Assembly: GCA_035583355.1 (NCBI GenBank)
Contig: DATEZQ010000011.1
Location: forward strand, 19,648 to 83,647
Direction of reading: 5' to 3'
DNA from: Minisyncoccota bacterium
GTDB lineage: Bacteria; Patescibacteriota; Minisyncoccia; Phycocordibacterales; UBA6899
Length of the DNA: 64,000 nucleotides
Below are positions 439-60,883 of this stretch, in pieces (position 1 is the first letter of the stretch; each line of letters starts with the position of its first letter). A program made the position numbers and the translations under genes. Below the pieces are notes generated by a model. It saw only the letters and a list, made by a program, of their open reading frames with translations. It searched no databases and was not told the origin of the DNA.

Positions 439-553
439 GCATATTTGGGCGCATCTGGCCCCGCTTCGGCTTGCGACTCGCTCACCGTACCAACGTACGG
501 CTCGCTAGAGTTCGCAACCCTCCAGCGGGACCATCTGCATCCCAAATCTGCAG
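439..553. repeat. Structured intergenic hairpin element, copy 1 (subfamily 1)
   Basis: Begins 5 nt after the rpmE stop. Outer stem atttggg...cccaaat, nested stems tggcccgc/gcgggacca and ttgcgactc/gagttcgcaa, tip hairpin ccgtac-caa-gtacgg. Followed by a T-run (tttttgtttt), so it can serve as the rpmE terminator. Homologous to the other six copies. Confidence 0.6.
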
Positions 554-600
554 TTTTTGTTTTATACTTGTATTGTGCTCACGGCTCATGACTGCTTAAT

Positions 601-1581
601 ATGGACTACGATCTCACAAAATTCAAAGACGACTATCGCACGAAATATCTCGCTGAGGATTTCGAGCGCATGCAAAAAGAACGCGCCGAGCTTGACGCGC
701 TGCTTTCTGATCCTGATATGGCAGAAATGGCCCGAGATGACGCTACTGCGCTTGATGCTGCAATGGCAGAGCAGTACGCTCGCCTCGAGAAGATCTTGAA
801 GGATGCCGAAGAAGAAGAGGAGAAGCCACGCGAGATTGTGCTCGAAGTACGAGCCGGAGTGGGTGGTGAAGAGGCTGCAATCTTTGCGGAGGATCTTGCG
901 CTCATGTACCAGGCATTCGCAAAAGCACGAAGCTGGCGATTTGAAGTTGTCGATGAGAGCCGTGCAGAAATGGGTGGCTACAAGGAGGCGAGCTTCGAAA
1001 TCACGGGAACTGATGCCTTTGATCTACTTCGTTATGAGACTGGTGTTCATCGCGTACAGCGTATCCCTGCAACAGAGAAGCAAGGGCGTGTGCATACATC
1101 AACGGCTTCGGTATCGGTCCTTCCTATTCGCAAGAAGTCGAAGGTGGTCATCAATCCTGCTGATGTGGAAATGCAATTTACCCGTGCAGGTGGTGCGGGT
1201 GGACAGAATGTGAACAAGGTTGAGACCGCAGTGCACCTTTTCCATAAGCCAACAGGTATTCACGTCCACTGTGCCGTGGAGCGTTCACAGCTCAAGAACC
1301 GTGAGAAGGCATTTACCATTCTCGCCGCAAAGGTGGAGCAGCTTGAGGATGAGAAGAACGCTGCGAAGAATGCAGAGATTCGCGCGATGGGGGGAACAGG
1401 CGATCGCTCTGAAAAGATCCGTACGTATAACGTGCTTCAGGATCGTGTGACGGATCACCGTATCAAGGAGTCGTGGCACGGTATTGAAGCCATTCTCGCA
1501 GGTGATATTTCTCGAATCGTTGAGACAGTACGAGACCGCGCACAGGCGGGGACCTTGGGTTCTGGTGATGACGAAGACTAA
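601..1581 (+). CDS. prfA: Peptide chain release factor 1
   Basis: GGQ motif ([19 protein letters not shown]), RF1-type PAT tripeptide ([16 protein letters not shown]), 326 aa. Confidence 0.85.
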
Positions 1582-1587
1582 AATGGA

Positions 1588-1706
1588 CGCGCATATTTTG
1601 GCGAATTTACCCCTACTTCGTCGAACGACTCAGTCAATGGGCACGAGCCCATCTCCTTCGAGTTCGTTCGACTCCAGCAGGGGGTAACTGCGCACAAAAT
1701 CTGCGG
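1588..1706. repeat. Structured intergenic hairpin element, copy 2
   Basis: Starts 7 nt after the prfA stop. Same architecture: catattttgg...caaaatctg outer stem, tttacccct/agggggtaa, gtcgaacgactc/gagttcgttcgac. The tip hairpin differs in sequence (atgggc-acga-gcccat) but keeps the stem. Confidence 0.55.
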
Positions 1707-1716
1707 TCCAGGTAAT

Positions 1717-2001
1717 GTGTTAATTTTTCCTTACATGCGAACTAACCATAACGAAATCTTCCATGGCGTGACCCTCCAGATGATTCTGGAGTTCTTGGTT
1801 GCACGCTACGGCTGGGAAGAGCTCGACAAGCGCATGCGTATCAACTGTTTTGCAATCAATCCAAGCATCAAATCGAGCCTTGTATTCCTCCGTCGTACCC
1901 CTTGGGCGCGAGCAAAAGTCGAGGATCTCTATGAAGAGACTGTTGTCATGGATGCACGCGACAAGAAGCAGGGGATCGAGCCTGGAGCAAAGCGATTCTA
2001 G
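1717..2001 (+). CDS. Small conserved protein resembling the DUF2132 / VF530 family
   Basis: HGVTLQMILEFLVARYGWEELDKRMRINCF...PSIKSSLVFLRRTPWARAKVEDLY matches my recollection of the VF530 consensus. The start may be the second ATG at 1735. Confidence 0.5.
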   Translation: MLIFPYMRTNHNEIFHGVTLQMILEFLVARYGWEELDKRMRINCFAINPSIKSSLVFLRRTPWARAKVEDLYEETVVMDARDKKQGIEPGAKRF

Positions 2002-2030
2002 AAAACACCATTCTTGTGGTGTTTTTTTGT
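2002..2030 (+). terminator. Rho-independent terminator
   Basis: aaacaccattcttgtggtgttt hairpin followed by a T7 run. Confidence 0.65.
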
Positions 2031-2167
2031 TGAAAACACAAAACTATACAATGAAATAGGAGAATTTCAATGTTTTTGCAGACTTATTTTGGGCGAAAAA
2101 ATGTTGCAAAACCTCAATAAACGTGTTAGTGTTACTCCATTATTAAGAAAACAATAGAGGAAAGAAT

Positions 2168-9091: not shown

Positions 9092-11220
<2,129 letters not shown>

Positions 11221-11221
<1 letters not shown>

Positions 11222-11252
11222 AAAAAGAAGAAGCTTTGCTTCTTCTTTTTTT
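11221..11252 (+). terminator. Rho-independent terminator after gyrB
   Basis: aaaaaagaagaagc-tttg-cttcttcttttttt. Confidence 0.7.
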
Positions 11253-11650
11253 ATGCATCAATATTTGCTTACTTTGTGCTGATGATTACAGCGTCGGTCT
11301 TTTTGTCGGGATTATGCTCTTTTCATTCCGCTTCGCGCTCAATGTATTTTTATACACCTCGCTTGCGATGCTCATTCCAAAGAGCATGCTGCCGACAAAA
11401 ATCCTCGACGTTTCATTGAGTGAAAATATATTTTCCGAAAAAACTAAGTACATTTTTTGTTTTCTCTGGTGACTACTCGAAATAAAATTTGTGAAAAATT
11501 TAAGAGAGAAATTTCAAATCATAAGTTGGAAAAGTTGCAAGGGTTATATTAAAAAATGCAGATGGGAATGAGGGTGATCGGGGAGAAGGAAAAGAAGGAA
11601 AGAGTTAATACAAAAATCGTAATAAAACAAAATATCAAGTACGTCAAGTG

Positions 11651-11847: not shown

Positions 11848-12120
11848 CCCACTTGCAACTCGTTATGGAATACACATGGAGGAGTGGCTGCTCCTTTGTG
11901 TAAAATTTAATGAAGCACGAACCGGAAAACAGTGTTGTGCATCTTCCTCGGAGTGGCATAAAACCGCCACCAACAAGGATTATGCAACATGTCTCCTCAC
12001 CGAATGCGAGTGGGGCTGTTCTGCTATCTCAGAGGAAAGCTACTGTATCTGTTGCAGTTCCTCGCACTGCAAACATCCCTGTTTCGCTGCGACCTGCTGA
12101 TTTGACGCTCCAGAGTTTTT

Positions 12121-12165
12121 CTGTTACGCGCGCGCGTACGCACGCGCACGCACACGCGCGAAAAG
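12121..12165. repeat. (CG/CA)n alternating purine-pyrimidine tract
   Basis: ctgttacgcgcgcgcgtacgcacgcgcacgcacacgcgcg. Potential Z-DNA and slipped-strand tract just upstream of the probable start of the secreted-protein gene. Confidence 0.7.
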
Positions 12166-12176
12166 ATGAAGGGGCA

Positions 12177-13877
12177 TTGAGGAGGGTACTTGATGCTGCG
12201 CTTACTGGTGGTGATGTTCGCATTGCTGCGCTCAAGCCTTCGTCTACGCTTACGCGTTTCTTTGCTTGGCTTCTCATTCCTGCGATGCTCATCACTCCAC
12301 TTGTTCCTGCGTACGCGAATGAGGCGCCGCTTGCAGACCGTGTTGCAAGTGATGTTGCTGCAATCGTTGCTGATTCAGCAATCGCAGAAAGTGTTACTGA
12401 GCCTGCTGGGGCTGTTGCTGCTGTCGCTGAGGTCGCTGAAGCAGATGCGCCAAGTGCGACTACTGGCGAAGTGCAAGTTGATACTCCTCCATCTATCCCA
12501 GGTAATGAAACTCCCCTAAGCGAAGAAACAACTGGCGAGAGTTCGGGGACTTCTGGTGACGTAGTCTCTCCTTCAACTCCTGACACCCCGGCAACTGGGG
12601 AAGTGGTGACTGTTGGAGAAGATCAGGTGCCTTCTTCGGGTGGCGCAAGTGCAGATGCTGGTGCGCCTGCTGCTACAAACACGCCGAGCGAAGTTATACC
12701 CGCAGATAGCGATTCGTCAGTAAACACGCCGAGTGAAGTAATCGTTTCGGATAATGATTCTTCTGCAACAACTTCGACGACAACGATTCCTGTGGATGAT
12801 TCTACGCAGACTGATTCGATGGCTTCGACCACTGAGGATGGGGTTACGCCGATCTTTGACATTGCACCTGATGAGGTGATGAGCAATGTTGATGCTATTC
12901 GTGCACGCTTGCGCAATGAAATGCGCGGACAGCTTCGTGATGAGGTTCGTAATGAGGTGAAGCAGGAGGTGCGACGTGAAGTTGAGGAAGAGGTCTATCG
13001 CGGATGTAAAAATCTTGATGGTACTGGCTACTACTGTATTCCTGATGCGAAGAGTTTTGGATCACCGGTTATTGAGAATGAGCGATCGATCGAAGTTGTC
13101 GTGCAGCCTGATCCGATTACTGGAAATAAACAGATCTTCTTGGTGCGCGGAGCTAGTACGATACAGCTCACGCATGGAACAGATGATAATGTTTTCCCTG
13201 TACTTGATCCACTTTCAGATACGCTTGTATGGCAGTCACTGCAAAGTGGTCGTTGGCAAGTTGCCTTTGCACACTTGAGTGATGTTGGTGTGCCGAAGGT
13301 GCAGTATCTCACGAGTGGTGAAAATAATTTTAATCCAAAGATTTATGCGGGCCGCATTGTATGGCAAGCATGGGTTGATGGTAACTGGGAGATATTCACT
13401 GCAATGCCGTCGAAAGATAAAATTCCTGATGAAGCACTTTCGGCTGAACATCGCGCCGCAGGTGTGGGTGGTGATTGGCAGGTGAAACGTATCACCGCAA
13501 ATAGCGCTCCCGACATGTTCCCAACTATTACGGGCGAGACAATCACGTGGCAGGCAGTCGATGGTGGTGTCTGGCAGGTCTTTGCCTATGACATCGCAAC
13601 GAGTGTTGCGCATCGTGTTTCGAAGCCAGGAGTGAAGAGTGATTCACCGAAGGTTGCGCTTGTTTGGAATGAAGAAGATGCAAATGGTCAGATGCGCATG
13701 GTGGGTACGAGTGTCGATGGCTCTGAGTCATTCGATTTCACTGCACTTGCAAGACGTATCGTTGATAATACTAAGGGAGAACCAAAATCTCCTGTTTCGA
13801 ATACGGAAATCGTTGTGGTTACTCCAGTTGCAGTACGCACGGAGTCTGAGGCTTCATCGACACCTCCCGTGAACTAA
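12177..13877 (+). CDS. Secreted protein: signal peptide, acidic Ser/Thr/Asp-rich linker, TolB/PD40-like beta-propeller repeats
   Basis: Signal peptide FFAWLLIPAMLITPLVPAYA|NE. Low-complexity linker. Repeated W-Q motifs (TLVWQSLQSGRWQVAF, GRIVWQAWVDGNWEIFTA, TITWQAVDGGVWQVFAYD) typical of PD40 propeller blades. The ORF-track start at 11910 would put 90 aa ahead of the signal peptide, so I propose the TTG at 12177. The start is uncertain. Confidence 0.5.
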   Translation: MRRVLDAALTGGDVRIAALKPSSTLTRFFAWLLIPAMLITPLVPAYANEAPLADRVASDVAAIVADSAIAESVTEPAGAVAAVAEVAEADAPSATTGEVQVDTPPSIPGNETPLSEETTGESSGTSGDVVSPSTPDTPATGEVVTVGEDQVPSSGGASADAGAPAATNTPSEVIPADSDSSVNTPSEVIVSDNDSSATTSTTTIPVDDSTQTDSMASTTEDGVTPIFDIAPDEVMSNVDAIRARLRNEMRGQLRDEVRNEVKQEVRREVEEEVYRGCKNLDGTGYYCIPDAKSFGSPVIENERSIEVVVQPDPITGNKQIFLVRGASTIQLTHGTDDNVFPVLDPLSDTLVWQSLQSGRWQVAFAHLSDVGVPKVQYLTSGENNFNPKIYAGRIVWQAWVDGNWEIFTAMPSKDKIPDEALSAEHRAAGVGGDWQVKRITANSAPDMFPTITGETITWQAVDGGVWQVFAYDIATSVAHRVSKPGVKSDSPKVALVWNEEDANGQMRMVGTSVDGSESFDFTALARRIVDNTKGEPKSPVSNTEIVVVTPVAVRTESEASSTPPVN

Positions 13878-13879
13878 AC

Positions 13880-16800
13880 ATGATAAGAAATAACGCCTAC
13901 AATCTTTTCGAAAAGACATGCACAATGATGCTCATCATGGCGTTGTTTTTGGTCAGCAGTGGTGGTCCAGAAAGCATGCGGTTTTTTGTTCATCCACTGG
14001 GAGTAAAATCGGCTGAAGCGGCGCAGACGAGCTATGGCAAGGAGTTGCGTACTGCCGAGTTTGTGCTTGGTGGTGGAAGTGATAATGCGTTGCGCGCGAG
14101 TGGAGTTATAGGGTATGCGGGGGCGAGCACCTGGGCAACTACAAAGCCCGCACTGCTTACTGGTGGTGATGTGGTAAAACTTTTGGGTACGGGAATTTCT
14201 GTCATCAACGCACAGCTTGATGTGTCATATGAATTTCCATCCGCGGCTGCCGCGACAGTTTCTGAGAATAAGATTTATCTTGACGTTGAAGGTGCTGCAA
14301 CGCAGGGGAGTAACACTCCTGTCAATGAAGCGAATGGCGCATCTCCACTTGCGGTTATGGCTGGAGGAACAGGATACCTACGTACAATACATGATGTAAC
14401 CAGTTTTTTTGATCGACAGTCTGACGCTACTTGGAATAGTGGTGTGCACGTGATAGCTGCGGTTGCTCCGACGCTTACTGCTGGTAATCGTGCGCTCACG
14501 ACTGCAAAGCTGCTTGTTACGTATGAGGTTGATATCGATCCGGCGATTACACAGCTCGTGAAGACAGTGCGTATTCCGCTTGCATCGAGTGGGGTTGCAG
14601 GAAATACAGGCTCTCGCACTACGGTTTGTGCAGCAGGGGCGACATGTCCTTTCACTTTTGATACTACAGTTATTCGTGATCTTGCTGCTGATGCAGATAT
14701 TCTTGATGCGCATATTGAATTTTTTGCGCAACAAGCAAGTAATGTAAATTCAACATACAGACTTCAGTTCGCAGGCGGCACTGCATCGCCGCTCTATGCT
14801 TGGAATGAGGCAGTTGCAGATACACACAATACACGTGTGCTTTGGGGAGCATTGCCGATCGGCGGGGCGAATCTGCGTGCGCAAACTGCACACACATTGA
14901 ATCTCGTGAACACTGCGGGTGGCGCGCCGCTTTATGCAACGGGTGGTGAGGTAGTGATTACCTATGTATTCAATCCGACTGCTGCAACACAAACAGAGAC
15001 GATTCGTTACTTTGTTGATCAGGAAACAGCATCACCTGGATCGGGAGTGAATGCTGCTATTGCGGGAACGAATGTGGTCATTGCAAATGATGCTCCTGTT
15101 GTGGAAAAGGCATGGTATCGTATGCAGCTTGCCCCAGTGTTCGCTGCGGCAACAACGATGACCGTCACCCATAGTGTGGGTGGGGTAAATGGTACTGCAC
15201 AAGTGTACCAGTTTCCTGCTCCTTCAACAGCGCGAAGAGCTGCAAACACACCCGTGGTGATTCATAGCCTTACTCCCGAAACGCTTTCATTCTCCGCGTC
15301 TACTCCAGTCGGTGGGACGTTTCGCTTTAGCGCAGCGGGTGGATCTCCTGTCGCTATCGAGGTAGTGACGACATTTTCTTGGAGTTATTCAATTTCGAGT
15401 AGTCAGACGAAGACTGCATTGTTTGGTGCATCACTCCCATCGATTGGCCGAAATGTTGGAACTGTCGATAAGGTGCGTCATACGATGCTGTATCTTCCTG
15501 AACGTGCAGCAAAAACATTTGAAGATGGATTTCTTGAGGCGCACTATACACATCATGATGCGTCAGCAATTTCAATTTCAAGTGGTATTCATATAGGTTT
15601 TGGGACTTCGACGACTGCAAATGCCTTGACTGTGACAGAGCTAGGCGGAACAGGGGGAACATATTCATATAGCGCTCGGTTGTATGCGAAGTTTACTTCT
15701 TCAGCTATTGGGTCATCAGTAAATTTGACCAAGCAACGTTATCCGTTTGCGGTTGAAGAGAGCGTTGATGTTGCTGCTGACTTCACCTACTTCGCGAACA
15801 CTGTTGTACTTACTTATACGGTTGCGGCACCACTTGCATATAGTCCACATCCAAAACAGTTGCGTACTGCTGAGTTTTTACTTGGTGGGGGATCTGAACA
15901 GGCGACGCGCGCAACGGGAGTGTATTCGTATGCAGGTGCATCTTGGAATACAACAAAACCTGCAGGAGAATTGATTAAGTTGCTTGGAGATGATGCGGAG
16001 GTCGTGAGTGCGTACGTGGATTTATCTTTCTCTACTACGAACATTGTGGCAGTCACCGGACTCACTGTATTGGGGGATATTACGGGTTCTATAGATAGCG
16101 ATGCAACAAACGTTACGCTTTATACTGCACCGATGAATCAAATTGTGGGTGGAGGAAGTACGGTAACGGGTTATTACCATGCTCAGATTGATGCAACAAG
16201 AATGTTTATTGGACAGTCGAGTGCATCGCTCAATGCGGGAGTGAATTTTGGGATTGGTGTTGCTGCGACAGGTCCAACTCGTGCACTCACTTCTGCAAAA
16301 CTTGTGGTGACCTATGAGAGCACGTACTCACTCAATCCAATGGTAGGAACGAAGACCGTACGTTTCCCACTCGATTCGACAACAGGAACAGATGTCGGCT
16401 CCAAGACTACAACATGCACCACCACAGCTTGCGGATTTACCTATAACGCCGCAATTGGAGATTTGCTCAACAGTGATACTGCGAATATTCTTTCGGTGCA
16501 TGCAGAGATTTCTGCACTTGCGAACTCGGCGGGTGCGGCAGCAGCACGTGCATATACAATTACTATTGCACATTCTCCTGGTTCAAGTGCAACATATAAT
16601 CCCGTTGAGACCGCACTGGACTCAACAGGCCTTCGTCTTATGTGGGGGATGCCTATCGGGGGAAATGACTTTGTAGTGAATACTCCAAGAACGCTTAATA
16701 TCGGTGCGAACACGACAAATGTTCCCCTTGCGCATCTTGGTGGAGAGATCGTCGTGACTTATGCATATTCAAGTCGCTCGACAAATCAATCGGAGACACT

Positions 16801-21739: not shown

Positions 21740-21780
21740 ACGCACAAACTTTCCACAGGTTGTGCGTTTTTTATACAGAG

Positions 21781-22010
21781 TTGTCCACAGTTTTATGCAC
21801 AGTTTATTAACAAATGTAGTATAATTACAGTTAGGAGGCCGTCCTCCACGAGTAAAGATATTCGATGATCTTCTCGTGCGCATAAGAAGCGGGTTTTCCA
21901 CTTTCGGCGTTATTTATAACGCTTATAGCAGCTGTACCACTCGGTACAACTTTTGCGCCCCACTTATACGTTTAAATAGCGTCCCATAACGCTGTTTAGC
22001 AGGTTTTAAA
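21781..22010 (+). promoter_or_regulatory. Conserved promoter plus long 5' leader of surface-protein gene A
   Basis: Shares ordered blocks with the leader of gene B: ttgtccacag, tgtagtataattaca (TATAAT -10-like), taggagg...cctcc hairpin, gcgcataag, gcgggttttccactttc, gtcccataac. Confidence 0.5.
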
Positions 22011-23195: not shown

Positions 23196-23369
23196 CGATA
23201 ACACCTAAAGAAAGCAAAACGGAGAAAACGCACCATTTATGGAGGCGTATTTTCCGTATTAGGAAAGAATTTGCATTTGCTATTCGGTTATGAAAGGGGG
23301 TATGGGGATAACTTTTTACTGTCAACGAGGTTGTGAGAAGCTTATGCACATCTTGTGCATACTTTTTTA

Positions 23370-35020: not shown

Positions 35021-35108
35021 TCTCTCGTTTGAGATATGATGCTTTATGCTAATTTATTGTTTCAACAAAATTTAGGTAATAAAAATTCCCCTAGCGGGGA
35101 AATTTTTA

Positions 35109-39050: not shown

Positions 39051-39072
39051 AAATCCCCGGGTGGGGATTTTT
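39050..39072. terminator. Bidirectional rho-independent terminator
   Basis: aaaatcccc-gggt-ggggatttt. Confidence 0.65.
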
Positions 39073-40031: not shown

Positions 40032-41504
40032 GTGAACGCACACGTCACACACCACAAGCTCTTTTTTGTTGTGGGTGCTTTGGCACTCTTTTTTGGAATG
40101 CGTGCATTCGCTCAAGACGCAAATCCTCCACAGATTTCGAATATTCAAATTGGGGGTCTGACTGCAACAAGTGCGGTCATTACGTGGGATACAGACAAGC
40201 CTGCAGATTCACAGATTAATTATTGTCTTACAAAAGATTACGGTATTGCGCGAGATCCTGGTGCAGACAAAACGAAGCATACAGTTACACTGATGGAGCT
40301 TGATCCATCAACACTCTACCACTTACGCGTGGGTTCTCAGGACTCTAGCGGCAACCAAGCACTTTCCGGTGACTACACACTTATTACTAAGGGTGCGCTT
40401 ACACTCAAGACCGAGCAACGGCTTTCACCTCAGGAAACTGCACATGTTGAGAAGGTGGTGCAGGAGATTCAGCAGATACAGACAACAGAGGCCTTAGAGA
40501 TTGTTCAGAAAGAATTAACGAAGGTTACAAAGCAGGTGGCGAAGCCCCCGTATATTATGGGTCCTCCACGTATCGCGGAGATTGGTATGGATTATGCCAT
40601 TGTTGCATGGGAGACGGACGATCCCGCATCTTCGATCATTGAGTATTCAAGAGAGAGTGAATATGACGTCGCTCGTCCTGATGCGTATAGTGCGCAGACT
40701 GAAGAGGGTGGTATGACGAAAGAGCACTCGGTGCGTATCGTTGGACTTGTCTCAGGTACAAACTATCACCTCCGTGCAGGATCGAAGAATTCTCTTAACC
40801 TTGTTGGATATTCGCGCGACGTTTCGTTTATGACGAAGTCACCGATTCCGACAGTGCAGAGCTTCCGTGTGATTAAGGCAGAAGCAGATAGTGCAACACT
40901 TGGTTGGAAGACGACTGTGCCTGCAGCGGGAATCGTTGAGTATACTGATATCAAAACGAAACAAGTACGCTCCGCTGGTTCGCCGGTGTTCGCATCGACG
41001 CAGGCAGTGAAGATCGCTGGTCTCAAGCTTGGCGCGCGCTATATGGCAGTCGTCAAAGCAGAAAATGCAGCAGGGGAGAAGGTGACGAGTGATCCGCTCT
41101 ACTTCTCTACCGTGAAAGATACGACTCCACCAATCATCAGTAAGGTGACGAATGAATCGACGTTGTATCCTACCGCAGAGGCAAAGGTGCAGACTATCGT
41201 CTCATGGGCGACTGATGAACCGGCATATTGTACCTATCACTATCGTGCAGGTCTCAATCCAAGCGTAGAAGCAACGAACTTCGAGGAAGAGAAGGAGCCT
41301 CGAACGAATCATGTTGAGGTTATTATCGAGTTCATGCCTTCAACGGTCTACCAGTTTTGGATGACCTGTCGCGATCCTTCGAGAAATGCGTCTGAATCTG
41401 AGAAATTCGTTTTGTTCACTCCAAATAAGGAGAAGAGCATTATTGATATTATTCTCGAGAACTTCCAAGGTGCGTTCGGTTGGGTCAAGAATATCGGTAA
41501 GTAA
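40032..41504 (+). CDS. Secreted protein with four fibronectin-III / purple-acid-phosphatase-N-like repeats
   Basis: Signal peptide. Four ~95-aa repeats, each with P-P-x-I..., a W..D motif (ITWDTD, VAWETDD, LGWKTT, VSWATDE) and Y-H-L/Y-x-V strands. Confidence 0.6.
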   Translation: MNAHVTHHKLFFVVGALALFFGMRAFAQDANPPQISNIQIGGLTATSAVITWDTDKPADSQINYCLTKDYGIARDPGADKTKHTVTLMELDPSTLYHLRVGSQDSSGNQALSGDYTLITKGALTLKTEQRLSPQETAHVEKVVQEIQQIQTTEALEIVQKELTKVTKQVAKPPYIMGPPRIAEIGMDYAIVAWETDDPASSIIEYSRESEYDVARPDAYSAQTEEGGMTKEHSVRIVGLVSGTNYHLRAGSKNSLNLVGYSRDVSFMTKSPIPTVQSFRVIKAEADSATLGWKTTVPAAGIVEYTDIKTKQVRSAGSPVFASTQAVKIAGLKLGARYMAVVKAENAAGEKVTSDPLYFSTVKDTTPPIISKVTNESTLYPTAEAKVQTIVSWATDEPAYCTYHYRAGLNPSVEATNFEEEKEPRTNHVEVIIEFMPSTVYQFWMTCRDPSRNASESEKFVLFTPNKEKSIIDIILENFQGAFGWVKNIGK

Positions 41505-41510
41505 TAAAAA

Positions 41511-41540
41511 GAAAACCGCTCCGGCGGTTTCTTTTTATTA
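41511..41540 (+). terminator. Rho-independent terminator
   Basis: gaaaaccgc-tccg-gcggtttctttttatt. Confidence 0.65.
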
Positions 41541-41576
41541 CTTACCGATTTCTTGCCCACTACTAGCGGCCGCGGC

Positions 41577-41676
41577 CTTTTTGCTCGGACCAGTCTCACG
41601 CTTCGCTCTCGTCGTACCACATGTACGTCGTCGAGCTCCAGCGAGGCTGTTGCGAGCAAAAATTCGCGCGGTTTCA
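41577..41676. repeat. Structured intergenic hairpin element, copy 4 (subfamily 2)
   Basis: ttttgctcgg...cgagcaaaa outer stem. Tip cgtac-cacat-gtacg. Conserved ctccagcgagg. 3' tail aaaattcgcgcggtttcat shared with copy 5. Preceded by the ggccgcggcc palindrome. Confidence 0.55.
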
Positions 41677-41790
41677 TGGTGTTGGTTATATGTAAATGCA
41701 TAATGCACAATTACAAAGTCAATTCACTTGCACGATATTTTGGGAGGAGTAATCTTATGTATAGAGAACCACTTTCCTAAGGAGGGAATC

Positions 41791-44708: not shown

Positions 44709-45917
44709 ATGAGATTACATGATATCGGAAAACTTTCGACGCGTATGTTCAAGACGAACCCTGCGCGTACATGGCTGACCATCGCGGGTATGGGCATCGG
44801 TACGGGGGCAGTCGTGACACTCGTTGCGCTTGGTTTTGGTATGCAGAATATCATTCTTGAGCAGATCGTCTTTGGTGAGACATTGCTCTCGCTCTCTGTG
44901 TCTGCGCCGCTGACGAGAGGTGTTCCGCTCAATGATGCGGCACTTGCAAGCTTCCGCTCCATGCCACACGTCAAAGATGTTGCAGGAATGGCGCAATTCC
45001 CAACACTCATTTCAATGAAGGGACTTACGGGAAATGCATTCGTCCAAGGTGTTGATCCTGCATACTATCGTTATACGGGAGCAAGTGCTGTTGCAGGAGA
45101 ATTGCATACTGATAAGAACAAGAACGCGACGAGTGACGGCGTAGTGCTTACGAAAGCATTGCTCAAGCTATTTGAGATAAAGGAGCCGAAGGATGCAATT
45201 GGTCAAATTGTGACGTTCCGTGTACTTGTGCCTGTTGATGAGACAGGTGATATGCAGGAGGTACCTATCGAGCGTAACTATCGTGTCGTTGGCGTGTCTA
45301 ATGACGATGCGTTCATATCAGCATTTATGCAGCTTACTGAGCTCCGCAACTATGTGCAGATTGCACAATATGAAAAGGCTCAGGTACGCGTAGTATCGAG
45401 CGAGTTTCTTCCAGCAACCACCGCGCTTGTTATTGCAAAAGGATTTATGGTGACCGCACTCAGCAAGACCGTCGATCAAGCAAACAAGATCTTTAGTGGT
45501 ATCCAGGTCGTCCTTGCGGTCTTTGGTAGTATCGCGCTTGCGGTTTCTGCGATTGGTATGTTCAATACGATGACCGTTACATTGCTTGAGCGCACAAAAG
45601 AGATTGGTATCATGCGTACGCTTGGAGCTTCTGCTCAAGACATTAAGATTCTCTTCCTGTCTGAATCAGTCATCGTGGGCTTCCTTGGGGGTATCATGGG
45701 AATTGTCTTCGGACTAGTGATTGGAGGGACACTGAATGGGCTCGTTAATCTTGCGGCAGCAAGTTTCGGTGGGAAATCGATGTCACTATTTTCTTTTCCA
45801 ATCCCATTCCTTGTATTCATTGCGACATTCTCAGCATTGGTGGGATTCATGACAGGAGTCTTCCCAGCAGTGCGTGCATCGAAGCTCTCTCCGCTTGATG
45901 CTATGAGGTACGGATAA
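44709..45917 (+). CDS. ABC transporter permease, FtsX/MacB family
   Basis: N-terminal TM, a large extracytoplasmic domain, and a C-terminal FtsX 3-TM bundle (IGIMRTLGASAQDIKILFLSESVIVGFLGGIMGIV). Confidence 0.7.
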   Translation: MRLHDIGKLSTRMFKTNPARTWLTIAGMGIGTGAVVTLVALGFGMQNIILEQIVFGETLLSLSVSAPLTRGVPLNDAALASFRSMPHVKDVAGMAQFPTLISMKGLTGNAFVQGVDPAYYRYTGASAVAGELHTDKNKNATSDGVVLTKALLKLFEIKEPKDAIGQIVTFRVLVPVDETGDMQEVPIERNYRVVGVSNDDAFISAFMQLTELRNYVQIAQYEKAQVRVVSSEFLPATTALVIAKGFMVTALSKTVDQANKIFSGIQVVLAVFGSIALAVSAIGMFNTMTVTLLERTKEIGIMRTLGASAQDIKILFLSESVIVGFLGGIMGIVFGLVIGGTLNGLVNLAAASFGGKSMSLFSFPIPFLVFIATFSALVGFMTGVFPAVRASKLSPLDAMRYG

Positions 45918-45918
45918 T

Positions 45919-45945
45919 TAAAAATACGGCTCTGCCGTATTTTTA
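45919..45945 (+). terminator. Rho-independent terminator
   Basis: aaaaatacggc-tct-gccgtattttt. Confidence 0.65.
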
Positions 45946-45975
45946 ATTATTCCTTAGCGTATTGTGAGCCGCGGT

Positions 45976-46074
45976 TATTTTGTCAGGATCGCTCGCTTTT
46001 CGCCCTCGCCGTACCATCGTACGTCGTCGGGCTCCAAAGCTGAGCGCTGCTGACAAAATTCCGCGCGGTTTCAT
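45976..46074. repeat. Structured intergenic hairpin element, copy 5 (subfamily 2)
   Basis: attttgtcagg...ctgacaaaat outer stem, which covaries with copy 4's ttttgctcgg/cgagcaaaa. Tip ccgtac-catc-gtacg. 3' tail aaaattccgcgcggtttcat. Confidence 0.55.
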
Positions 46075-46259
46075 ATATCGAGGGTGAGTGGCTTCGAAGC
46101 TAATGCAAAATTCACATTCGAAGACTCATAAAATGCATGGCGGGGGAGTCATGGTTGGGAAATAGCAAGTAAGAAAAGACTTTTTGAGGAGTCGACTGTG
46201 GATAAGATGCAAGCTAATTGCACTTGTATGGTGTATAATAATGTTAATAATCTGCATAT

Positions 46260-48158
46260 ATGGACGGGAAATTATTTCATTGGGGGACAGCAGGTAAGAT
46301 TACGGTAGCAACCGGAATTTTTGCTTTGCTCACACTTATCGCGGTGTCGACCGTTGGTGTATTTAGTATGCAAGCTTCAGCGGGTGGCACTGGTGCAGCA
46401 ACCTCAACAGTGAAGGTGCTCAACACTCCTCCTCGTTTTAATGCAGCTCCTCGCGAAGTTGTTATTTCAGCAACGACAACACCAACGCTTAACGGCTCAG
46501 TTGTTGTCTGGTCAGCAGATGCATATGACAGCTCAAGCAATAACATTTATTTGCTCATCTGTAGGACAAATGGAGCTCCAACTGCAACTACCTCTGCACA
46601 GCCTGTTTGTGCTGGCGGCGCAGGCAATAACCTTGCAGTCACAAGCGGTACTCCTCCAGCGCCAGTCTATCCAGCAACTGCAATAGTGTATGCGACTTCA
46701 AGTCCAATTACAGATAATGTAAATGAGACGATACAATGGTATGCATTCGTTTGCGATGATGTCGTAGGCTTGCCTAAGTGCTCAAAGGTAACTGATCCAT
46801 TGATTCAGGGTGCTCTCCCAAATCCTGAGGCCTCACCACTTGTTATCAATCATCCTCATACATTTAGCTTAATAACAAATAACGGACCAAGAGATCCAGG
46901 TCAGGCAATTACCTTCACTGCTTCGTCAACTGAGGTTACGCATCAGGACACCATCAATGGCCCTGACCTTGCAACGCTCTTTCTCTGTAAGGCACCTGAC
47001 TTCACCGGAAGTGATTGTGGGCCAGGAGGTAAATGGGCTTCATCGACCGTAGCCGTACAGACTAATCCGACTGCAGGGTGGACATTTACTATTCCAATGG
47101 TAAATGGTGCGACGACAACCTATCCATATATTCTCGACAGTCGCCAGCAGCAGGCAATAGGTGCAGCGCAGGGTTCCTCGACGACCTTTACGGTCAATAA
47201 TGTTGCGCCAACAATCGTTCCTGGTACTATCGCGCTTATCGATCAATTCGCAAGTACATCGCTCAAGCTCGTCGTTGAGAAGGGTGAGACACCAAACTTC
47301 AAGCTCTCATTCCAGGTTCAGGATAATAACTCCTGCAAGACCGCAGCGGGTGGCAATCAAGCATCTAGCACAGCGATTACGGTCTACCGTAGTGGTTATG
47401 CAGATGCGTCATGTAATGGGCTCGCAAATGGCCAGCACAACTACAACAGCTGCTATTCAAGCGCCGATGCAAGTGCAACATGGAATGTAACTTGTGCACC
47501 TGATCCAACATATATGTCAGACACTTGTGCAGGAACTGGTGACACAACAGTGGCTTGGTCTTGTTCTTTCCCACTATGGTACACAACGGATCCTACAGAC
47601 TTTGGTTCACCATGGTCAGGAGAGCAGATGAAGGTAAATATCATTCCTATGGATAGCTCAGGAGCTACAACCTCAAACTTGAGATTGACTGGTTCTGAGA
47701 TGAATATTCTTTCTGCGCTCGGTCTCACTGCAAATACCTTTAGTTTCGGTGGTTGGGAGCCTGGTCAAGGAAATACGAATCTCGGTGTTGACGATTTAGG
47801 CGCAACGACTTCGTTGCTCCAAATTCAAGCAACGGGTAACGCATCCCTTGATACGAATATTTCGGGTACAGACATGTGTGTAGGCTATCCAGCATGTTCA
47901 GGATTGCCTGGTGACACGATTCCTGCGGGTCAGGAGCGTTATGCGACGAGCACCGTGCTTTATGCAAGTGGTATTACGCTCGCAACAACAACACCAAAAT
48001 TCTTTGATTTCAATATTCTTAAGTCAACTTCAACCTCAACGCCAAGTATGGGTACACTCTACTGGGGTATAACCGTGCCTGCAGCAATTACCGTTTCGGG
48101 TGACTATAAGGGTCAAAATGCAATTGATGCAGTGGTGAATGCCTCTGCCATCTGGTAA
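46260..48158 (+). CDS. Large secreted Thr/Ser/Gly/Ala-rich surface protein
   Basis: N-terminal signal-anchor ITVATGIFALLTLIAVSTVGVFSMQASA. 632 aa, low in charged residues, several Cys pairs. No recognised domain. Confidence 0.5.
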   Translation: MDGKLFHWGTAGKITVATGIFALLTLIAVSTVGVFSMQASAGGTGAATSTVKVLNTPPRFNAAPREVVISATTTPTLNGSVVVWSADAYDSSSNNIYLLICRTNGAPTATTSAQPVCAGGAGNNLAVTSGTPPAPVYPATAIVYATSSPITDNVNETIQWYAFVCDDVVGLPKCSKVTDPLIQGALPNPEASPLVINHPHTFSLITNNGPRDPGQAITFTASSTEVTHQDTINGPDLATLFLCKAPDFTGSDCGPGGKWASSTVAVQTNPTAGWTFTIPMVNGATTTYPYILDSRQQQAIGAAQGSSTTFTVNNVAPTIVPGTIALIDQFASTSLKLVVEKGETPNFKLSFQVQDNNSCKTAAGGNQASSTAITVYRSGYADASCNGLANGQHNYNSCYSSADASATWNVTCAPDPTYMSDTCAGTGDTTVAWSCSFPLWYTTDPTDFGSPWSGEQMKVNIIPMDSSGATTSNLRLTGSEMNILSALGLTANTFSFGGWEPGQGNTNLGVDDLGATTSLLQIQATGNASLDTNISGTDMCVGYPACSGLPGDTIPAGQERYATSTVLYASGITLATTTPKFFDFNILKSTSTSTPSMGTLYWGITVPAAITVSGDYKGQNAIDAVVNASAIW

Positions 48159-49388: not shown

Positions 49389-50582
49389 ATGAACGGATGG
49401 AATACTAAAATGCGTTATGCTCCTTTCTCGGTACGTAATATGGAGCGTATCGCATTTTTAGTTGCCGGACTTGTGTTTGTGTTAATAACAAATACGCATA
49501 ACGTAGCAGCGGAAGTCGGCAGTGTAGTTGCAACATCCACGGTAGCGATTTCGATTTGTAATAATGGAATTGTCGATAGTGGTGAGACCTGTGATTTCGG
49601 GCTCGGGCTAAATGATGGAGAATATTCTTCGACCACTGCGGGTCGTCACTGTGCAACAAACTGTCGTTCTTGGGGCCCATATTGCGGTGACGGTATTCTT
49701 AAGGCATTTTATGGTGAAGAGTGTGTCCCTGATGGAAATAATTTTTGCACAGATCAGTGTAAGCAGAAGGAGCCACCCGTGTCTTCAACTACTCCTCCCG
49801 CTCCGCCTCCTACTCCGTCGGGAAACGGTGGTGGGTCCGGTGCAGTGCCTATGCGCGCACAGACACAAGTTGTGTTTGCAGGGAAGGCATACCCCAATAC
49901 TCGTGTGCAGATTCTTAAAGATGGAGTGTTGCTCGGCATCGCTCAGGCTGATGGTAATGCGGACTTTTCCTATAACGTAACGAATGCAACTCCTGGCCCA
50001 ACGACGTTTGGCTTCTGGGCTGAGGACAACAAGAAGATACGATCAATTACATACACGACGACATTTCAGGTGACTCAAAATGCAGTGACAAACGTTGGTA
50101 ATGTATTTCTCCCTCCAACGATTCGCGCACTCATCGCGAAGGTATCTCCGGGTACGAATATAATTCTTGACGGCACTACTGCTCCAAGAGCACGTGTACA
50201 ACTACTCCTAGATAAATCAAGTGCACCGGTACATACTGCAAATTCAAAAGATAATGGTGAGTGGGATGCAAGTTTGCCAACAGGGGGTATGTCTCCCGAA
50301 AACTATCATCAAATATTGCCTTTCCTTGAGCTGATTGGCGCAAGTGGTACTGTTCCGCAAAAGAGTGGCAATGGTACTTCACTCAATGTGTTTGTCGGTA
50401 ATAGTAACGTGTCAGACCGTACAGGCAATGGTGACATCAATGGTGATGGTAAGGTGAACATTCTCGATTTCTCTATGCTCTTGTTTCGTTTTGGTGGTGC
50501 CGATCCAGCGGGTGATCTCAATCATGATGGTAAAGTAAATATCGCCGATCTTTCTATTATGCTCTTTAATTGGACTGCATAA
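49389..50582 (+). CDS. Secreted protein with Myxococcus-type Cys-rich repeats and a C-terminal dockerin module
   Basis: Signal peptide. CNNGIVDSGETCDFG and CGDGILKAFYGEECVPDGNNFC fit the CGDG...GEECDDGN repeat. C-terminus GNGDINGDGKVNILDFSMLLF...GDLNHDGKVNIADLSIMLFNW is a duplicated dockerin Ca-binding segment. Confidence 0.65.
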   Translation: MNGWNTKMRYAPFSVRNMERIAFLVAGLVFVLITNTHNVAAEVGSVVATSTVAISICNNGIVDSGETCDFGLGLNDGEYSSTTAGRHCATNCRSWGPYCGDGILKAFYGEECVPDGNNFCTDQCKQKEPPVSSTTPPAPPPTPSGNGGGSGAVPMRAQTQVVFAGKAYPNTRVQILKDGVLLGIAQADGNADFSYNVTNATPGPTTFGFWAEDNKKIRSITYTTTFQVTQNAVTNVGNVFLPPTIRALIAKVSPGTNIILDGTTAPRARVQLLLDKSSAPVHTANSKDNGEWDASLPTGGMSPENYHQILPFLELIGASGTVPQKSGNGTSLNVFVGNSNVSDRTGNGDINGDGKVNILDFSMLLFRFGGADPAGDLNHDGKVNIADLSIMLFNWTA

Positions 50583-57717: not shown

Positions 57718-57744
57718 TACACGCCATTAATTCTTTACTGTAAA

Positions 57745-58383: not shown

Positions 58384-58430
58384 TCAACATGCAAAGCGGG
58401 CAATGGCCCGCTTTGTGTTATAATAATGAT

Positions 58431-58646
58431 ATGAGAAAACTCTACAGGCATACAAAAGGTGAGCGCCATGTTGCGGGTGGTGTCTTTGCAGGTCTTGGTG
58501 ACTGGCTTGAAGTGAGTCCAGGAATTTTGCGTGCAGGATATATTGCGCTTGCTATCTTTAGCGGAGTGATTCCGGGGATATTGCTGTACTTGGCGGCTAT
58601 GCTTTTGATGAAAAAGAATCCTGCGCACGAAGTGCACGATATATAG
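58431..58646 (+). CDS. PspC-domain membrane protein
   Basis: MRKLYRHTKGERHVAGGVFAGLGDWLEVSPGILRAGYIALAIFSGVIPGILLYLAAMLLM is the PspC-domain pattern. The ORF-track start at 58389 overlaps an upstream hairpin, so I chose the ATG at 58431. Confidence 0.6.
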   Translation: MRKLYRHTKGERHVAGGVFAGLGDWLEVSPGILRAGYIALAIFSGVIPGILLYLAAMLLMKKNPAHEVHDI

Positions 58647-58647
58647 T

Positions 58648-58775
58648 AAACCGCTGATTCGGGCGACCTTGCCCTCACGCTTCAGCACGTGACTCGTTCA
58701 CCGTATAACCCATACGGCTCACTAGAGTTCACGTGCCTCCAGCGAGGGCAATCTCATTCCGAATAAGCGGTTTTT
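58648..58775. repeat. Structured intergenic hairpin element, copy 6
   Basis: 15-bp outer stem aaaccgctgattcgg/ccgaataagcggttt then a T-run. ttgccctc/gagggcaa, gcacgtga/tcacgtgc, tip ccgtat-aaccc-atacgg. Core gactcgttcaccgta...ctcactagagttc. Confidence 0.6.
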
Positions 58776-58913
58776 CGTTGCGTGATATTTAGAAAATGCA
58801 AAATTCAAAATCTGAGGTTTTTGTTGTGTGGAGTTTGTGGGAATACAAAATACGAAATACTAAAAATTTAACCGCACCTTGTGGGGTGCGGTTGGTGGTG
58901 TGCTCTTTGAGCA

Positions 58914-59213: not shown

Positions 59214-59334
59214 GTGTCCTCCTGGGACGGGAAGGGGGATGAAAAGAGCTAACCTTTGAGGATTACATTATAGCATAATTATGATATTTGTCAAGTATAC
59301 GGGGGTATAAGAAAAACCGCACGTTTGTGCGGTT

Positions 59335-59895
59335 TTAGCCAAGCGTCTCCATGATGAATCGTATGAGGAGGCGGGTAGAACGGTCATATTTATGATTTGC
59401 GTTGTTGATGATGCAGTCATACTGCGGATGCATCGCAGCGAGCGTCTCGTTGCGCACATCTTGCATGCGTTCGGTGAGCTCCGCGAGTGTGCGGCAGCGT
59501 TTGTGCAGGCGCTCTCTGATCTCGGGTTCGGGCGCGAGGATGAATGCGAAATGTGCCTCAGGCACGAGTGCGACGATCTTGTCCGCACCCTCAGGGTCGC
59601 GAATGATGATCGCTGGTCCTGCCTCGAGCGTACCAAAGAGATTTTCTTTGAACGTTCCGTGGTAGTGCCCATGAGCAAGTGAGTATTCTGCAATGAGACC
59701 CTTCTGTCTACTGTCCATAAAGTCCTGCTCATTGATGTACGTGTATGCCCGGTCAGGTGATTCCCCATGTCTGGGCTTTCTGGTCGTATGTGTCGTGATT
59801 TGGGTGAGCTCGGGAAAGATCTGGAGGATGCGTCCTACCAGCTCGATCTTTCCACAAGCAGCAGGTCCAGAAATCACAAACAGAGGATAGCGCAT
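59335..59895 (-). CDS. Guanylate kinase-like paralog with degenerate P-loop
   Basis: Aligns along its length with the adjacent gmk (TTRKPRHGE, AEYSLAHGHYHGT, IIRDPEGADKI, FAFILAPEPEIRERL, YDCIINNAN). Its Walker A reads GPAACGKIE, with Ile replacing the Ser/Thr after Lys. Confidence 0.6.
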   Translation of the reverse strand: MRYPLFVISGPAACGKIELVGRILQIFPELTQITTHTTRKPRHGESPDRAYTYINEQDFMDSRQKGLIAEYSLAHGHYHGTFKENLFGTLEAGPAIIIRDPEGADKIVALVPEAHFAFILAPEPEIRERLHKRCRTLAELTERMQDVRNETLAAMHPQYDCIINNANHKYDRSTRLLIRFIMETLG

Positions 59896-59982
59896 GATGA
59901 CCTCCGTAATGTGCGTCTATCTTAATAGTATCGTGGATTACATTCTGCGCAATAGAAAAGCGCACCCGAAGGTGCGCTGTAG

Positions 59983-60561
59983 TTAATCGAGGTTTTCCCG
60001 AATGAATGCGTAGAGCTGGCGGAGCGACCGGTCGAGGTACCCATTGGCGTTGTTGATCACACAGCCATAGTACCAGCGATTGGCGTGGCGCATCTCCTCT
60101 TCCGAGTCCTTCATCCTTCGTGCGAAGTCGGCATGGTCCGTACTCCGCTCGGTGAGTCGGGCACGGAGGTCATCGTCGGGGGCCATGATGAAGATACAAT
60201 GCGCATCGGGGAAGAGTTCAGAGATTTTCTCGGCACCCTGGGGGTCCAGGATGATGATCGCAGGACCCTTCGTTCGTGCCTTGCGCACGTCCTCGACACG
60301 GGGGCCGTAGAGATTCCCATGCACTTCGGCGTGCTCGATGAATTCCTTGTGTTTGATGCCGGATTTGAATTGCGCGACGGTAAGGAAGTGGTAGGCGACG
60401 CCATTTTTTTCACCAGGCCGCTTCTTGCGCGTGGTGCAGGTGATAATGCGGTTCAGTTTCGGGAAGTCGGCAATGACTCTATCGGCCATCTTCGACTTGC
60501 CCGCAGCGGCTGGGCCCGAAATGACGAACAACGGGTAGAGTTGCTTTCCTGTCTTTTCCAC
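59983..60561 (-). CDS. gmk: Guanylate kinase
   Basis: P-loop SGPAAAGKSK. TTRKKRPGEKNGVAYHF. EHAEVHGNLYG. ILDPQGA. IFIMAPDDDLRARLTERS. Full-length match to the Gmk pattern. Confidence 0.8.
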   Translation of the reverse strand: MEKTGKQLYPLFVISGPAAAGKSKMADRVIADFPKLNRIITCTTRKKRPGEKNGVAYHFLTVAQFKSGIKHKEFIEHAEVHGNLYGPRVEDVRKARTKGPAIIILDPQGAEKISELFPDAHCIFIMAPDDDLRARLTERSTDHADFARRMKDSEEEMRHANRWYYGCVINNANGYLDRSLRQLYAFIRENLD

Positions 60562-60642
60562 GAGTGCTCCTTGTAGTGTGAACTTCTATCCGAGATACTA
60601 AAGGATTTTGACGATAACGCAAGGGTGTTGTGTGTTTATAAA

Positions 60643-60668
60643 GAAAAGACTCCCTTAAGGGAGTCTTT
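60643..60668. terminator. Bidirectional terminator hairpin
   Basis: aaagactccc-ttaa-gggagtcttt with a T-rich run on the minus strand. Confidence 0.55.
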
Positions 60669-60671
60669 ATC

Positions 60672-60752
60672 TTAACGCATACGCGTACTTGGTGTCTTGC
60701 CTGCACGCTTTGCCTTCTGCTTTTGGGCTTGCTTTTCCTTCTTATTTGCCAT
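60672..60752 (-). CDS. Possible 26-aa highly basic small protein
   Basis: ATG...TAA on the minus strand encodes MANKKEKQAQKQKAKRAGKTPSTRMR. It is bracketed by a terminator and by repeat copy 7. Composition is ribosomal-protein-like but I recognise no family. Could be spurious. Confidence 0.25.
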   Translation of the reverse strand: MANKKEKQAQKQKAKRAGKTPSTRMR

Positions 60753-60767
60753 ATTTGTTTGTGGCCC

Positions 60768-60883
60768 CCATATTTGGGCGCACTTGGTGTCACTTCGCCT
60801 TGCGACTCACTCAACGTACTCCGAGTACGTCTCGTTTGAGTTCGCAAGACTCCAGTAACACCAATTGCATCCCAAATCTGTGG
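60768..60883. repeat. Structured intergenic hairpin element, copy 7
   Basis: About 85% identical to copy 1 over ~115 nt (ccatatttgggcgca...cttgcgactcactcaacgtactccgagtacgtctcgtttgagttcgcaagactccag...gcatcccaaatctg). The tip stem acgtact/agtacgt covaries with copy 1's ccgtac/gtacgg. Confidence 0.6.

Follow-up and report, generated by a model that had tools for sequence, protein, structure and literature searches.

A hairpin repeat family behind stop codons in candidate-phyla bacteria, with its better fold on the antisense strand

Element copies in the window and in related genomes

A stretch of 64,000 nt from a Minisyncoccota bacterium (contig DATEZQ010000011.1 of assembly GCA_035583355.1, positions 19,648 to 83,647 of the forward strand; hereafter the window) contains, among genes such as rpmE, prfA and gyrB, a family of intergenic hairpin elements, of which an initial annotation made from the letters alone had listed seven. 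All seven are real and lie where they had been placed; an eighth, at 11288–11418 (47.8 bits), had been missed. The window holds eight copies, five long and three short, all in one orientation. Their hairpin fold has been kept by selection, and the strand on which it folds better is, in nearly all copies, the one antisense to the neighbouring gene.

An element is about 130 nt long, made up of a conserved hairpin of about 115 nt and an outer stem of 5–10 bp that is specific to the site. An nhmmer profile of the five long copies recovered them with E values of 1e-34 to 1e-40 and gave no further full-length match in the window. A covariance model, the tool that the initial annotation had suggested, was run over the window with filters off. 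It ranked the eight copies, all on the − strand, above every other match in the window, and the matches ranked below them are ordinary terminator hairpins.

The first long copy, c1 (433–557, − strand; 138.3 bits), lies between rpmE (195–434) and prfA (601–1581). The rpmE stop codon TAA (432–434) overlaps its outer stem, AAAACTGCA/TGCAGTTTT, after which a T-run follows on the + strand. Copy c2 (1584–1710, − strand; 106.1 bits) comes directly after the prfA stop codon (1579–1581); its loop 5 pairs AG/CT, and its tip reads ATGGGC..GCCCAT. At c3 (34900–35023, − strand; 131.8 bits), at the end of the DJ-1 open reading frame (ORF; 34386–34910), the DJ-1 stop codon TAA is made within the conserved left end of the element (CA-TAA-TTTGG), and the outer stem is AGACTTCA/TGAAGTCT. 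Copy c6 (58648–58773, − strand; 118.9 bits) directly follows an ORF with a PspC domain (58389–58646), and its outer stem, AAACCGCT/AGCGGTTT, together with a T-run, resembles the genome's own AAAACCGC..GCGGTTTT terminators. A remnant of a right arm (GCAAAATTCAAAATCTGAGGTTTTTG; 58803–58835, − strand; nhmmer E 0.19) lies 30 nt downstream of c6. The last long copy, c7 (60763–60886, − strand; 127.8 bits), is found between a trmA-like gene (60925–62220) and gmk (59983–60561), both on the − strand; it is the sole window copy whose better-folding strand is the mRNA-sense strand, and it has the weakest outer stem. Four window copies abut a stop codon (those of rpmE, prfA, DJ-1 and the PspC ORF), one more than had been annotated, while the T-runs seen earlier after c1 and c6 were confirmed for these two copies only.

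Copies c4 (41567–41678, − strand; 30.2 bits) and c5 (45965–46076, − strand; 28.3 bits) belong to a shorter subtype that lacks helix P3 and the CTCGCT motifs of the long copies. The eighth copy, c8 (− strand; nhmmer 1.4e-7), was found by a profile of c4 and c5 and is intermediate between both types; it lies about 65 nt after gyrB (9095–11221), past gyrB's own palindromic terminator. The common CTTCG/CTCCAG loop is present in c4, along with the CGTAC tip, the TTTTTG/CAAAAA helix and the right flank GGTTTCAT. This short-type flank is conserved at three places in the window (41679–41690, 46077–46105 and 11419–11425) and in the related locus L007 (5955–6028). The right flank of c5, to about 46100, is conserved with the copy in L007, and the two share a further stretch of about 30 nt (ATATATCGAGGGTGAGTGGCTT.GAAG) despite non-homologous neighbour genes; L007 also carries an extra solo right arm.

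About 35 copies of the family were collected, in related metagenome genomes. The conserved core was scanned as an exact pattern against GTDB (one genome per species), JGI metagenome contigs and IMG/VR. Among the GTDB species genomes it matched an unclassified 'bacterium' metagenome-assembled genome (MAG; JAJZQJ01, at least 10 copies), one MAG of Paceibacterota and another labelled Saccharibacteria; two matches in Verrucomicrobiales were dismissed as chance. The JGI contigs add 12 loci, whereas the core pattern had no match in IMG/VR, and blastn against plasmids and phages found no similar DNA. The window is itself absent from the genome collection, and its first 2.9 kb are identical to a Logan contig. 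The closest named homologues of the window's release factor RF1 are from Ca. Lloydbacteria and Ca. Paceibacterota, at 66% identity, which places the host among the Patescibacteria (CPR). Rfam 15, a comparison that had also been proposed, gave no match at any copy, neither at gathering thresholds nor at E ≤ 10. We regard the elements as a real and well-defined structured repeat family of bacteria of the candidate phyla radiation, apparently undescribed.

Fold, covariation and strand asymmetry

In each window copy, as the initial annotation had proposed, the sequence forms a single long hairpin with interruptions, and its folding energy is far below that of shuffled sequence (z-scores −4 to −9 for the + strand and −4 to −12 for the − strand); the compensatory changes that the annotation quoted for helices P1, P3 and P4 are correct. 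We aligned 31 distinct long copies from the window and related contigs, each on its better-folding strand (alignment A1). RNAalifold predicted 51 pairs on this alignment, and compensatory double changes were present in 45 of the 51. The proportion of paired cells was 94.4%, against 72.5% in shuffled alignments (none of 500 shuffles reached the observed value), and sliding the partner left only 33–41% of the cells paired. Double-change cells numbered 340, compared with 91 expected. Three copies from syntenic contigs collected later, which the covariance model had not seen, scored 104–110 bits. Because the covariation is massive and was confirmed on unseen copies, the fold is under selection, and the earlier view that the copies are not recent identical duplicates is supported.

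The two CTCGCT motifs between the helices, which had been described as unpaired, in fact hold two base pairs that covary: the central dinucleotide of one motif is paired with that of the other, as GC/GC, GT/AC, AC/GT, AG/CT, AT/AT or GG/CC. At these motifs, which are missing from the short copies c4 and c5, the only invariant mismatches are the flanking TC·TC (GA·GA on the other strand) and one A·C (G·U). Read on the better-folding strand, the invariant features are a UA bulge, a tandem G·A/A·G followed by G·U beside the tip helix, a second loop with U-G-GA-G opposite C-GA-A, and, close to the base, a U·G wobble and a bulged A. All invariant columns (TGGAG/GAA and GAACTC.A..GAG/TGA..GAGTC) lie in the interior, and the columns of the outer stem are the least conserved, with 41 of 279 cells mismatched. 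The bulges (A24, G42 and U58-A59 in A1) all lie on the 5′ arm of the folding strand, that is, the gene-distal arm. By inspection, the invariant loops were not assigned to kink-turn, loop E or sarcin-ricin motifs, as their bulges, of 1–2 nt, do not adjoin the G·A pairs as they would have to in a kink-turn. We also rejected a small ORF in which TGGAG would serve as a Shine–Dalgarno sequence ahead of an ATG, as the spacing is too short and the ATG covaries within a stem.

The two strands of the element are not equivalent. In each of the 31 copies the better fold, by 10–20 kcal/mol, is that of the strand complementary to the window's + strand; mean folding energy was −68.3 kcal/mol on the strand antisense to the neighbouring gene and −54.2 kcal/mol on the other strand (n=31), and DNA folding parameters give the same preference. 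It is the better-folding strand that carries the two conserved wobbles, three tandem G·A platforms and the variable G·U pairs. Indeed, with the two conserved wobbles excluded, the inner stems have 52 G·U cells in 18 pairs, compared with 8 A·C cells in 5 pairs. This bias is absent from the outer stem (10 G·U and 12 A·C cells), which contains many plain mismatches. Several pairs wobble in both orientations, which indicates repeated events, though the cells are not independent.

Mutation bias was considered as the source of the G·U excess and rejected. It does not explain the asymmetry, because the GC skew of the element (−0.19 on the gene-sense strand) runs opposite to that of the window's + strand (+0.03 to +0.15), which is G-rich throughout; a mutation bias linked to replication or transcription would act in the other direction. 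The deamination bias expected on a non-template or lagging-template strand would also give the opposite sign. Copy c7 and the copy in locus L010, which lie opposite to the others with respect to transcription, retain the same strand asymmetry, and by GC skew the folding strand is the leading-strand template for all eight window copies. Since the G·U and tandem G·A signature lies on the antisense strand, the mRNA strand is the non-optimised one, and our conclusion is that the antisense strand, in a single-stranded form, is what selection acts on.

Position at genes and turnover between relatives

In 27 of the 31 copies a long co-oriented ORF has its stop codon 1–20 nt ahead of the inner helix, which places it within the outer stem or immediately before it. 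Housekeeping genes lie upstream of the copies: in the window rpmE, prfA, DJ-1, PspC and gyrB, and elsewhere tuf, rpsJ, rplW, rplB, rplN, rpsB, tsf, ndk, a prepilin peptidase gene, LemA, RNR and rlmH. In ribosomal-protein operons (S10 and spc) the element (E) is found in the order tuf-[E]-rpsJ-[E]-rplC...rplW-[E]-rplB, and also as rplN-[E]; the same two S10 spacers, rpsJ>rplC and rplW>rplB, are filled in two genomes whose ribosomal proteins are 80–91% identical. These S10 copies are transcribed in gene sense and therefore cannot be terminators there. A run of at least four T follows the hairpin in 9 of the 31 copies on the sense strand and in 8 of 31 on the antisense strand, and only individual copies, such as c1 and c6, have the stable hairpin plus U-tract that defines an intrinsic terminator. 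As a general reading, the elaborate terminators or 3′ stabilisers suggested at first do not hold, given the few T-runs on either strand, the copies inside ribosomal-protein operons and the antisense fold signature. Copy c7, in its minus-strand operon, and the L010 copy abut no stop codon. In L010 (7029–7551) the reverse-oriented element separates smpB from the tmRNA gene and ends 4 nt short of the predicted 5′ end of tmRNA.

Hairpins at stop codons are also native to this genome. Of the 55 window genes, 28 have a hairpin starting at or inside the stop codon (for example, 41502–41545, 45915–45955, 39048–39080, 35080–35112 and 11213–11259), and most of these hairpins are A-tract/T-tract bidirectional terminators. 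Many are perfect A-tract/T-tract palindromes, which would terminate in both directions, and a 22-bp perfect palindrome follows gyrB. These native intrinsic terminators share with the elements their position, the stop codon in the 5′ arm and the A-tract/T-tract outer stem. They are, however, hairpins of 10–20 bp without a shared interior, whereas the elements add a conserved interior of 115 nt and are also found without a T-tract and inside operons.

The rpmE–prfA site that is empty in the relative L025 consists of an ordinary terminator, TAAAACAGCGCGGCGC-GTTA-GCGCTCGCTGTTTTT, in the place of the window's TAAAACTGCA-[element]-TGCAGTTTTT, and the L025 terminator shares TAAAAC.G...C.GTTTTT with the outer stem of c1. 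Outer stems of the AAACCGCT/AGCGGTTT kind would fit an element that has settled within a native stop-codon hairpin or taken the place of its upper part. Nesting of this sort would make the outer stem site-specific, place the host stop codon within it and leave it without strand bias. At the tsf site there are two independent fillings by different subtypes; because these two insertions carry unrelated outer stems, a host or site origin of the outer stem is favoured.

Four sites could be followed between relatives. The rpmE>prfA spacer is filled in the window and empty in L025, L027, L028 and L030. The prfA>VF530 spacer is filled in the window, L025 and L028, and empty in L027 (3-nt spacer) and L030 (11-nt spacer). 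A copy lies between rpsB and tsf in L027, with the same site empty in the window and L028; behind tsf, before the next gene, the site is filled in L020 and L027 and again empty in the window and L028. L025 is a close relative of the window's genome (rpmE 100% and prfA 96% identical in amino acids).

The identity of copies does not track that of their hosts. The prfA-site copy in L025 is of a different subtype and only 70% identical to c2, beside a prfA that is 87% identical; c3 and copy L024a are 93% identical beside DJ-1 coding sequences of 78% identity; and the pairs of S10-operon copies are 86% and 72% identical beside coding sequences of 83% and 79%. The prfA-site copy in L028 is of the same rare AG/CT subtype as c2 and has a similar outer stem. 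These two copies are separated by 17 double changes, with one broken pair, and differ at 4 of 23 loop positions, a pattern that reflects either long constraint in situ or replacement by a sister copy. At the site orthologous to that of c3, L024 has two tandem copies and one inverted copy, and L004 has a full copy followed by a half copy. Solo right arms lie 10–40 nt downstream of full copies in the window (the remnant behind c6), L025, L009 and L002; both these and L024 place new copies, as it appears, gene-proximal to older ones. Discrete types of tip hairpin are found again in combination with different stems, a pattern suggestive of exchange between copies. Between close relatives, copies have been gained, lost, replaced, duplicated and truncated.

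The spacers concerned hold other repeats. In relatives, the rpmE>prfA spacers (L027:9837–10000, L028:5340–5468 and L030:1976–2028) contain, at the site of c1, G-rich heptads, (GGGAATA)n or (TAGGGNN)n, that make up a G-quadruplex-like motif; L027 has (CTTCTCA)n tandem repeats behind them, immediately ahead of the prfA start. In L008 there are similar inverted arrays, (GTAAGAA)n...(CTTCTCA)n, between rpsJ and rplC. This rpsJ>rplC spacer, of about 450 nt (L008 reverse strand; L013:1705–1977), contains a second block, conserved between L008 and L013, with a hairpin, GGCCACATGCTC...GAGCATGTGGCC, which may be a ribosomal-protein leader or other structured RNA.

With regard to the stop codons themselves, the 55 window genes end in TAA (42) or TAG (13) and none in TGA, and all 29 ORFs upstream of elements in loci L002–L025 have TAA or TAG as their stop codon. 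Out of frame, TGA is frequent in the window (1163 occurrences), and RF1 (prfA) is the only release factor seen there. The prfA of L027 ends in TGA, so that any loss of UGA stops would be lineage-specific. Other features of the window are tandem paralogous genes of unassigned function (22011–23195 and 23580–24785, within 21754–24785), whose promoter-like upstream regions are repeated as well (21754–21852 and 23347–23445), and two adjacent guanylate-kinase paralogues (59335–60561). A protein with dockerin type I repeats (GDINGDGKVN) and Ig-like domains is encoded at 49389–50582, and near it are several large ORFs without a Pfam match (11910–19249 and 46260–48158); these are probably cell-surface proteins.

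Interpretation and comparison with known systems

The reading that we tentatively prefer, without regarding it as established, is that of a non-autonomous palindrome related in kind to REPINs, its closest analogue, which is mobile or spreads by recombination and is kept as a single-stranded hairpin, probably of DNA, nested in stop-codon hairpins. The element would be propagated or recognised as a hairpin of the antisense strand, most likely in single-stranded DNA, and a trans-acting enzyme, encoded elsewhere in the genome, would read the invariant internal G·A loops. It would insert into native stop-codon or terminator hairpins or take the place of their upper part. Coupling of insertion to replication could account for the uniform orientation, and so could the purging of copies that put the stronger, nearly continuous duplex in mRNA. 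In mRNA the element would then appear as a weaker, loop-interrupted hairpin, which may stand in for the terminator where a T-tract remains; this would be a side effect, and any effect of the element on mRNA would be secondary.

A number of observations weigh against such a mobile palindrome. No transposase, HUH enzyme, integrase or recombinase, or reverse transcriptase was found by a Pfam scan of about 60 proteins next to copies at about 25 loci; all of these proteins are housekeeping or of unknown function. No target-site duplication was seen, as four comparisons of filled and empty sites gave no direct repeat, although AT-rich palindromic flanks limit the power of this test. The flanks of the elements are inverted rather than direct repeats, and the one apparent direct repeat, in the rplW–rplB spacer of L008 and L013, is a single shared event. 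There is no clean pair of empty and filled sites, since the rpmE–prfA sites differ by replacement and not by simple insertion. The folding strand would be on the leading-strand template, where single-stranded DNA is scarce, and the cells of the G·U/A·C count are not phylogenetically independent. The three internal loops are invariant and the ends vary, unlike in REPINs or miniature inverted-repeat transposable elements (MITEs). Finally, copies persist at the same operon positions in genomes that are 10–20% apart in their ribosomal proteins, and differ there mainly by compensatory changes, which looks like constraint in situ and some host-level function.

That last point leads to the main rival, which is not exclusive of a mobile palindrome: a host cis-acting hairpin of the sense RNA, serving as stabiliser, processing site or, with a U-tract, terminator, and spread by recombination. 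It would account for an element that is always transcribed in gene sense and starts at the stop codon in 27 of 31 copies, for the conserved S10-operon positions in two genomes, for same-site copies that differ almost only by compensatory changes and for c1, which apparently replaced a native terminator and retained its T-run; and the sense hairpin still has −42 to −66 kcal/mol. We nevertheless think it unlikely. Selection on the sense strand predicts G·U and G·A on that strand, but the sense strand has the A·C and U·C/C·U mismatches and the antisense strand the G·U and G·A; sense T-runs are confined to the 9 copies counted above; the spacers of 3 and 11 nt in L027 and L030, where others hold a copy, make copies appear dispensable; and c7 and L010 lie in the opposite sense. 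If the transcript of the antisense strand were functional instead, as a small RNA family or as a polar terminator of antisense transcription into highly expressed operons, the conserved G·U wobbles and the tandem G·A loops typical of structured RNA would be on the expected strand. On this strand a U-run of at least four follows the hairpin in 8 of 31 copies, and at L010 the element is in sense and ends 4 nt before the tmRNA gene. Yet a U-run in only a quarter of copies is few, the 70 nt upstream of the 31 copies share nothing and contain no conserved promoter, conservation stops at the hairpin, and most copies are antisense to ribosomal-protein and translation-factor operons, which makes a functional antisense RNA rather improbable.

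Two further explanations take the element for DNA of a known class. A double-strand cut-and-paste MITE, with terminal inverted repeats (TIRs) read by a DDE transposase and the hairpin as a by-product of long TIRs, would explain a multicopy intergenic element with present/absent polymorphism and truncated copies that is, as a whole, an inverted repeat. The initial annotation had set a MITE without a conserved fold against its own structural reading, and the element does behave as mobile DNA; the fold, however, is conserved, and no target-site duplication was seen in the four comparisons. The entire interior covaries to different sequences, something not required for the recognition of TIRs, the strands are asymmetric and the ends are the least conserved part, so that we consider a MITE improbable. 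The attC sites of integrons, which recombine as bottom-strand hairpins behind cassette ORFs, are defined by an unpaired central spacer, extrahelical bases on one arm and AAC/GTT triplets (PMC2727003). The elements resemble attC sites, especially the Vibrio cholerae repeats of about 125 bp, in length, in being single-strand hairpins of conserved structure, in lying directly behind co-oriented ORFs and in folding on the bottom strand. The folded strand belongs to the leading-strand template, as does the active strand in 25 of 30 sedentary chromosomal integrons (PMC5371416), and AAC...GTT is frequent in the outer stem. In contrast to attC, the element has no unpaired central spacer, and the corresponding 4–5 nt (TGCA/TGCA) are paired with a single G·A mismatch. 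The two or three extrahelical bases of attC are on the gene-proximal R″-L″ arm, whereas the bulges of the element are on the gene-distal arm. AAC/GTT is present in only about 60–75% of copies (C-G at column 11/131 in 19 of 31; A-U at columns 9 and 10 of A1 in 19 and 23 of 31), with GAC/GTC and other variants common. The interior is conserved rather than variable, cassette arrays are absent, no integrase was found next to copies, and the flanking rpmE, prfA, rpsB, tsf, tuf, rpsJ, rplW and rplN are essential genes in synteny that is conserved with or without the element. Membership among attC sites was rejected on these grounds; it is already largely refuted and, in our view, very improbable.

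Departing further from known elements, the elements may be substrates of a novel structure-specific system of candidate-phyla bacteria that acts on single-stranded nucleic acid, in which an enzyme or ribonucleoprotein would recognise one strand by its three tandem-G·A loops and insert the hairpin at the tips of stop-codon hairpins. Another possibility is that hairpins of the antisense strand, where highly expressed genes end, serve a host protein, for instance in replication–transcription conflicts or DNA uptake. We consider this proposal unlikely, but if it were true it would describe a new kind of element and not a variant of REP, attC or MITE.

Repeats are considered rare in the tiny, streamlined genomes of candidate-phyla bacteria. 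The present family, a structured repeat of 130 nt, takes up about 1.6% of the 64 kb and occurs even inside ribosomal-protein operons. With about 35 copies, covariation at nearly every pair, three invariant loops and a clear strand signature, the family is an unusually clean case for study and a good starting point in the search for a new mobilisation or recognition enzyme that is single-strand-specific. The family is also relevant to the evolution of terminator and stop-codon hairpins, and in MAGs of this kind such repeats will probably interrupt assemblies and mislead the prediction of terminators and non-coding RNAs.

The mobile palindrome that we prefer finds its nearest counterpart in REPINs, doublets of REP sequences that form hairpins and are mobilised by RAYT transposases (Bertels & Rainey 2011, PMC3116915). 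Like REPINs, the elements are extragenic and multicopy, form a long hairpin in single-stranded form with frequent compensatory changes, leave singlet remnants (the solo right arms) and occur in ordered clusters (tandem and inverted in L024, with a half copy in L004). REPINs are non-autonomous and depend on a presumed single-copy enzyme elsewhere in the genome; a single-strand mechanism of this type would explain the strand asymmetry. No RAYT was found among the roughly 60 proteins next to copies in the window and about 15 loci. REPINs consist of two highly conserved inverted REP ends with a less conserved spacer between them (PMC3116915), and the present elements have neither a REP-like short palindrome nor a conserved 5′ tetranucleotide. 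They also differ from REPINs in their strict position at stop codons, their uniform orientation and their candidate-phyla host.

The PATE elements derived from IS200/IS605 have subterminal hairpins at both ends, a fixed target of 4–5 nt lying 5′ of their left end, and an active strand that is part of the lagging-strand template; this element has one hairpin, and its better-folding strand is, by GC skew, on the leading-strand template. Neither TnpA nor TnpB was found among the scanned neighbour proteins. REP/BIME, ERIC, Correia and RUP elements are imperfect palindromes of 100–150 bp in transcribed intergenic regions of proteobacteria and firmicutes. They fold in mRNA, where they can stabilise, terminate or process transcripts, and they insert at TA with target-site duplications or occur in both orientations. 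We know of none reported with an antisense-optimised fold or a fixed position at stop codons, and the element has no sequence similarity to any of them by Rfam or blastn. Broadly, the family belongs with the REP/REPIN-type elements, but with an unusual pattern of conservation, a strict stop-codon position and an antisense-strand signature.

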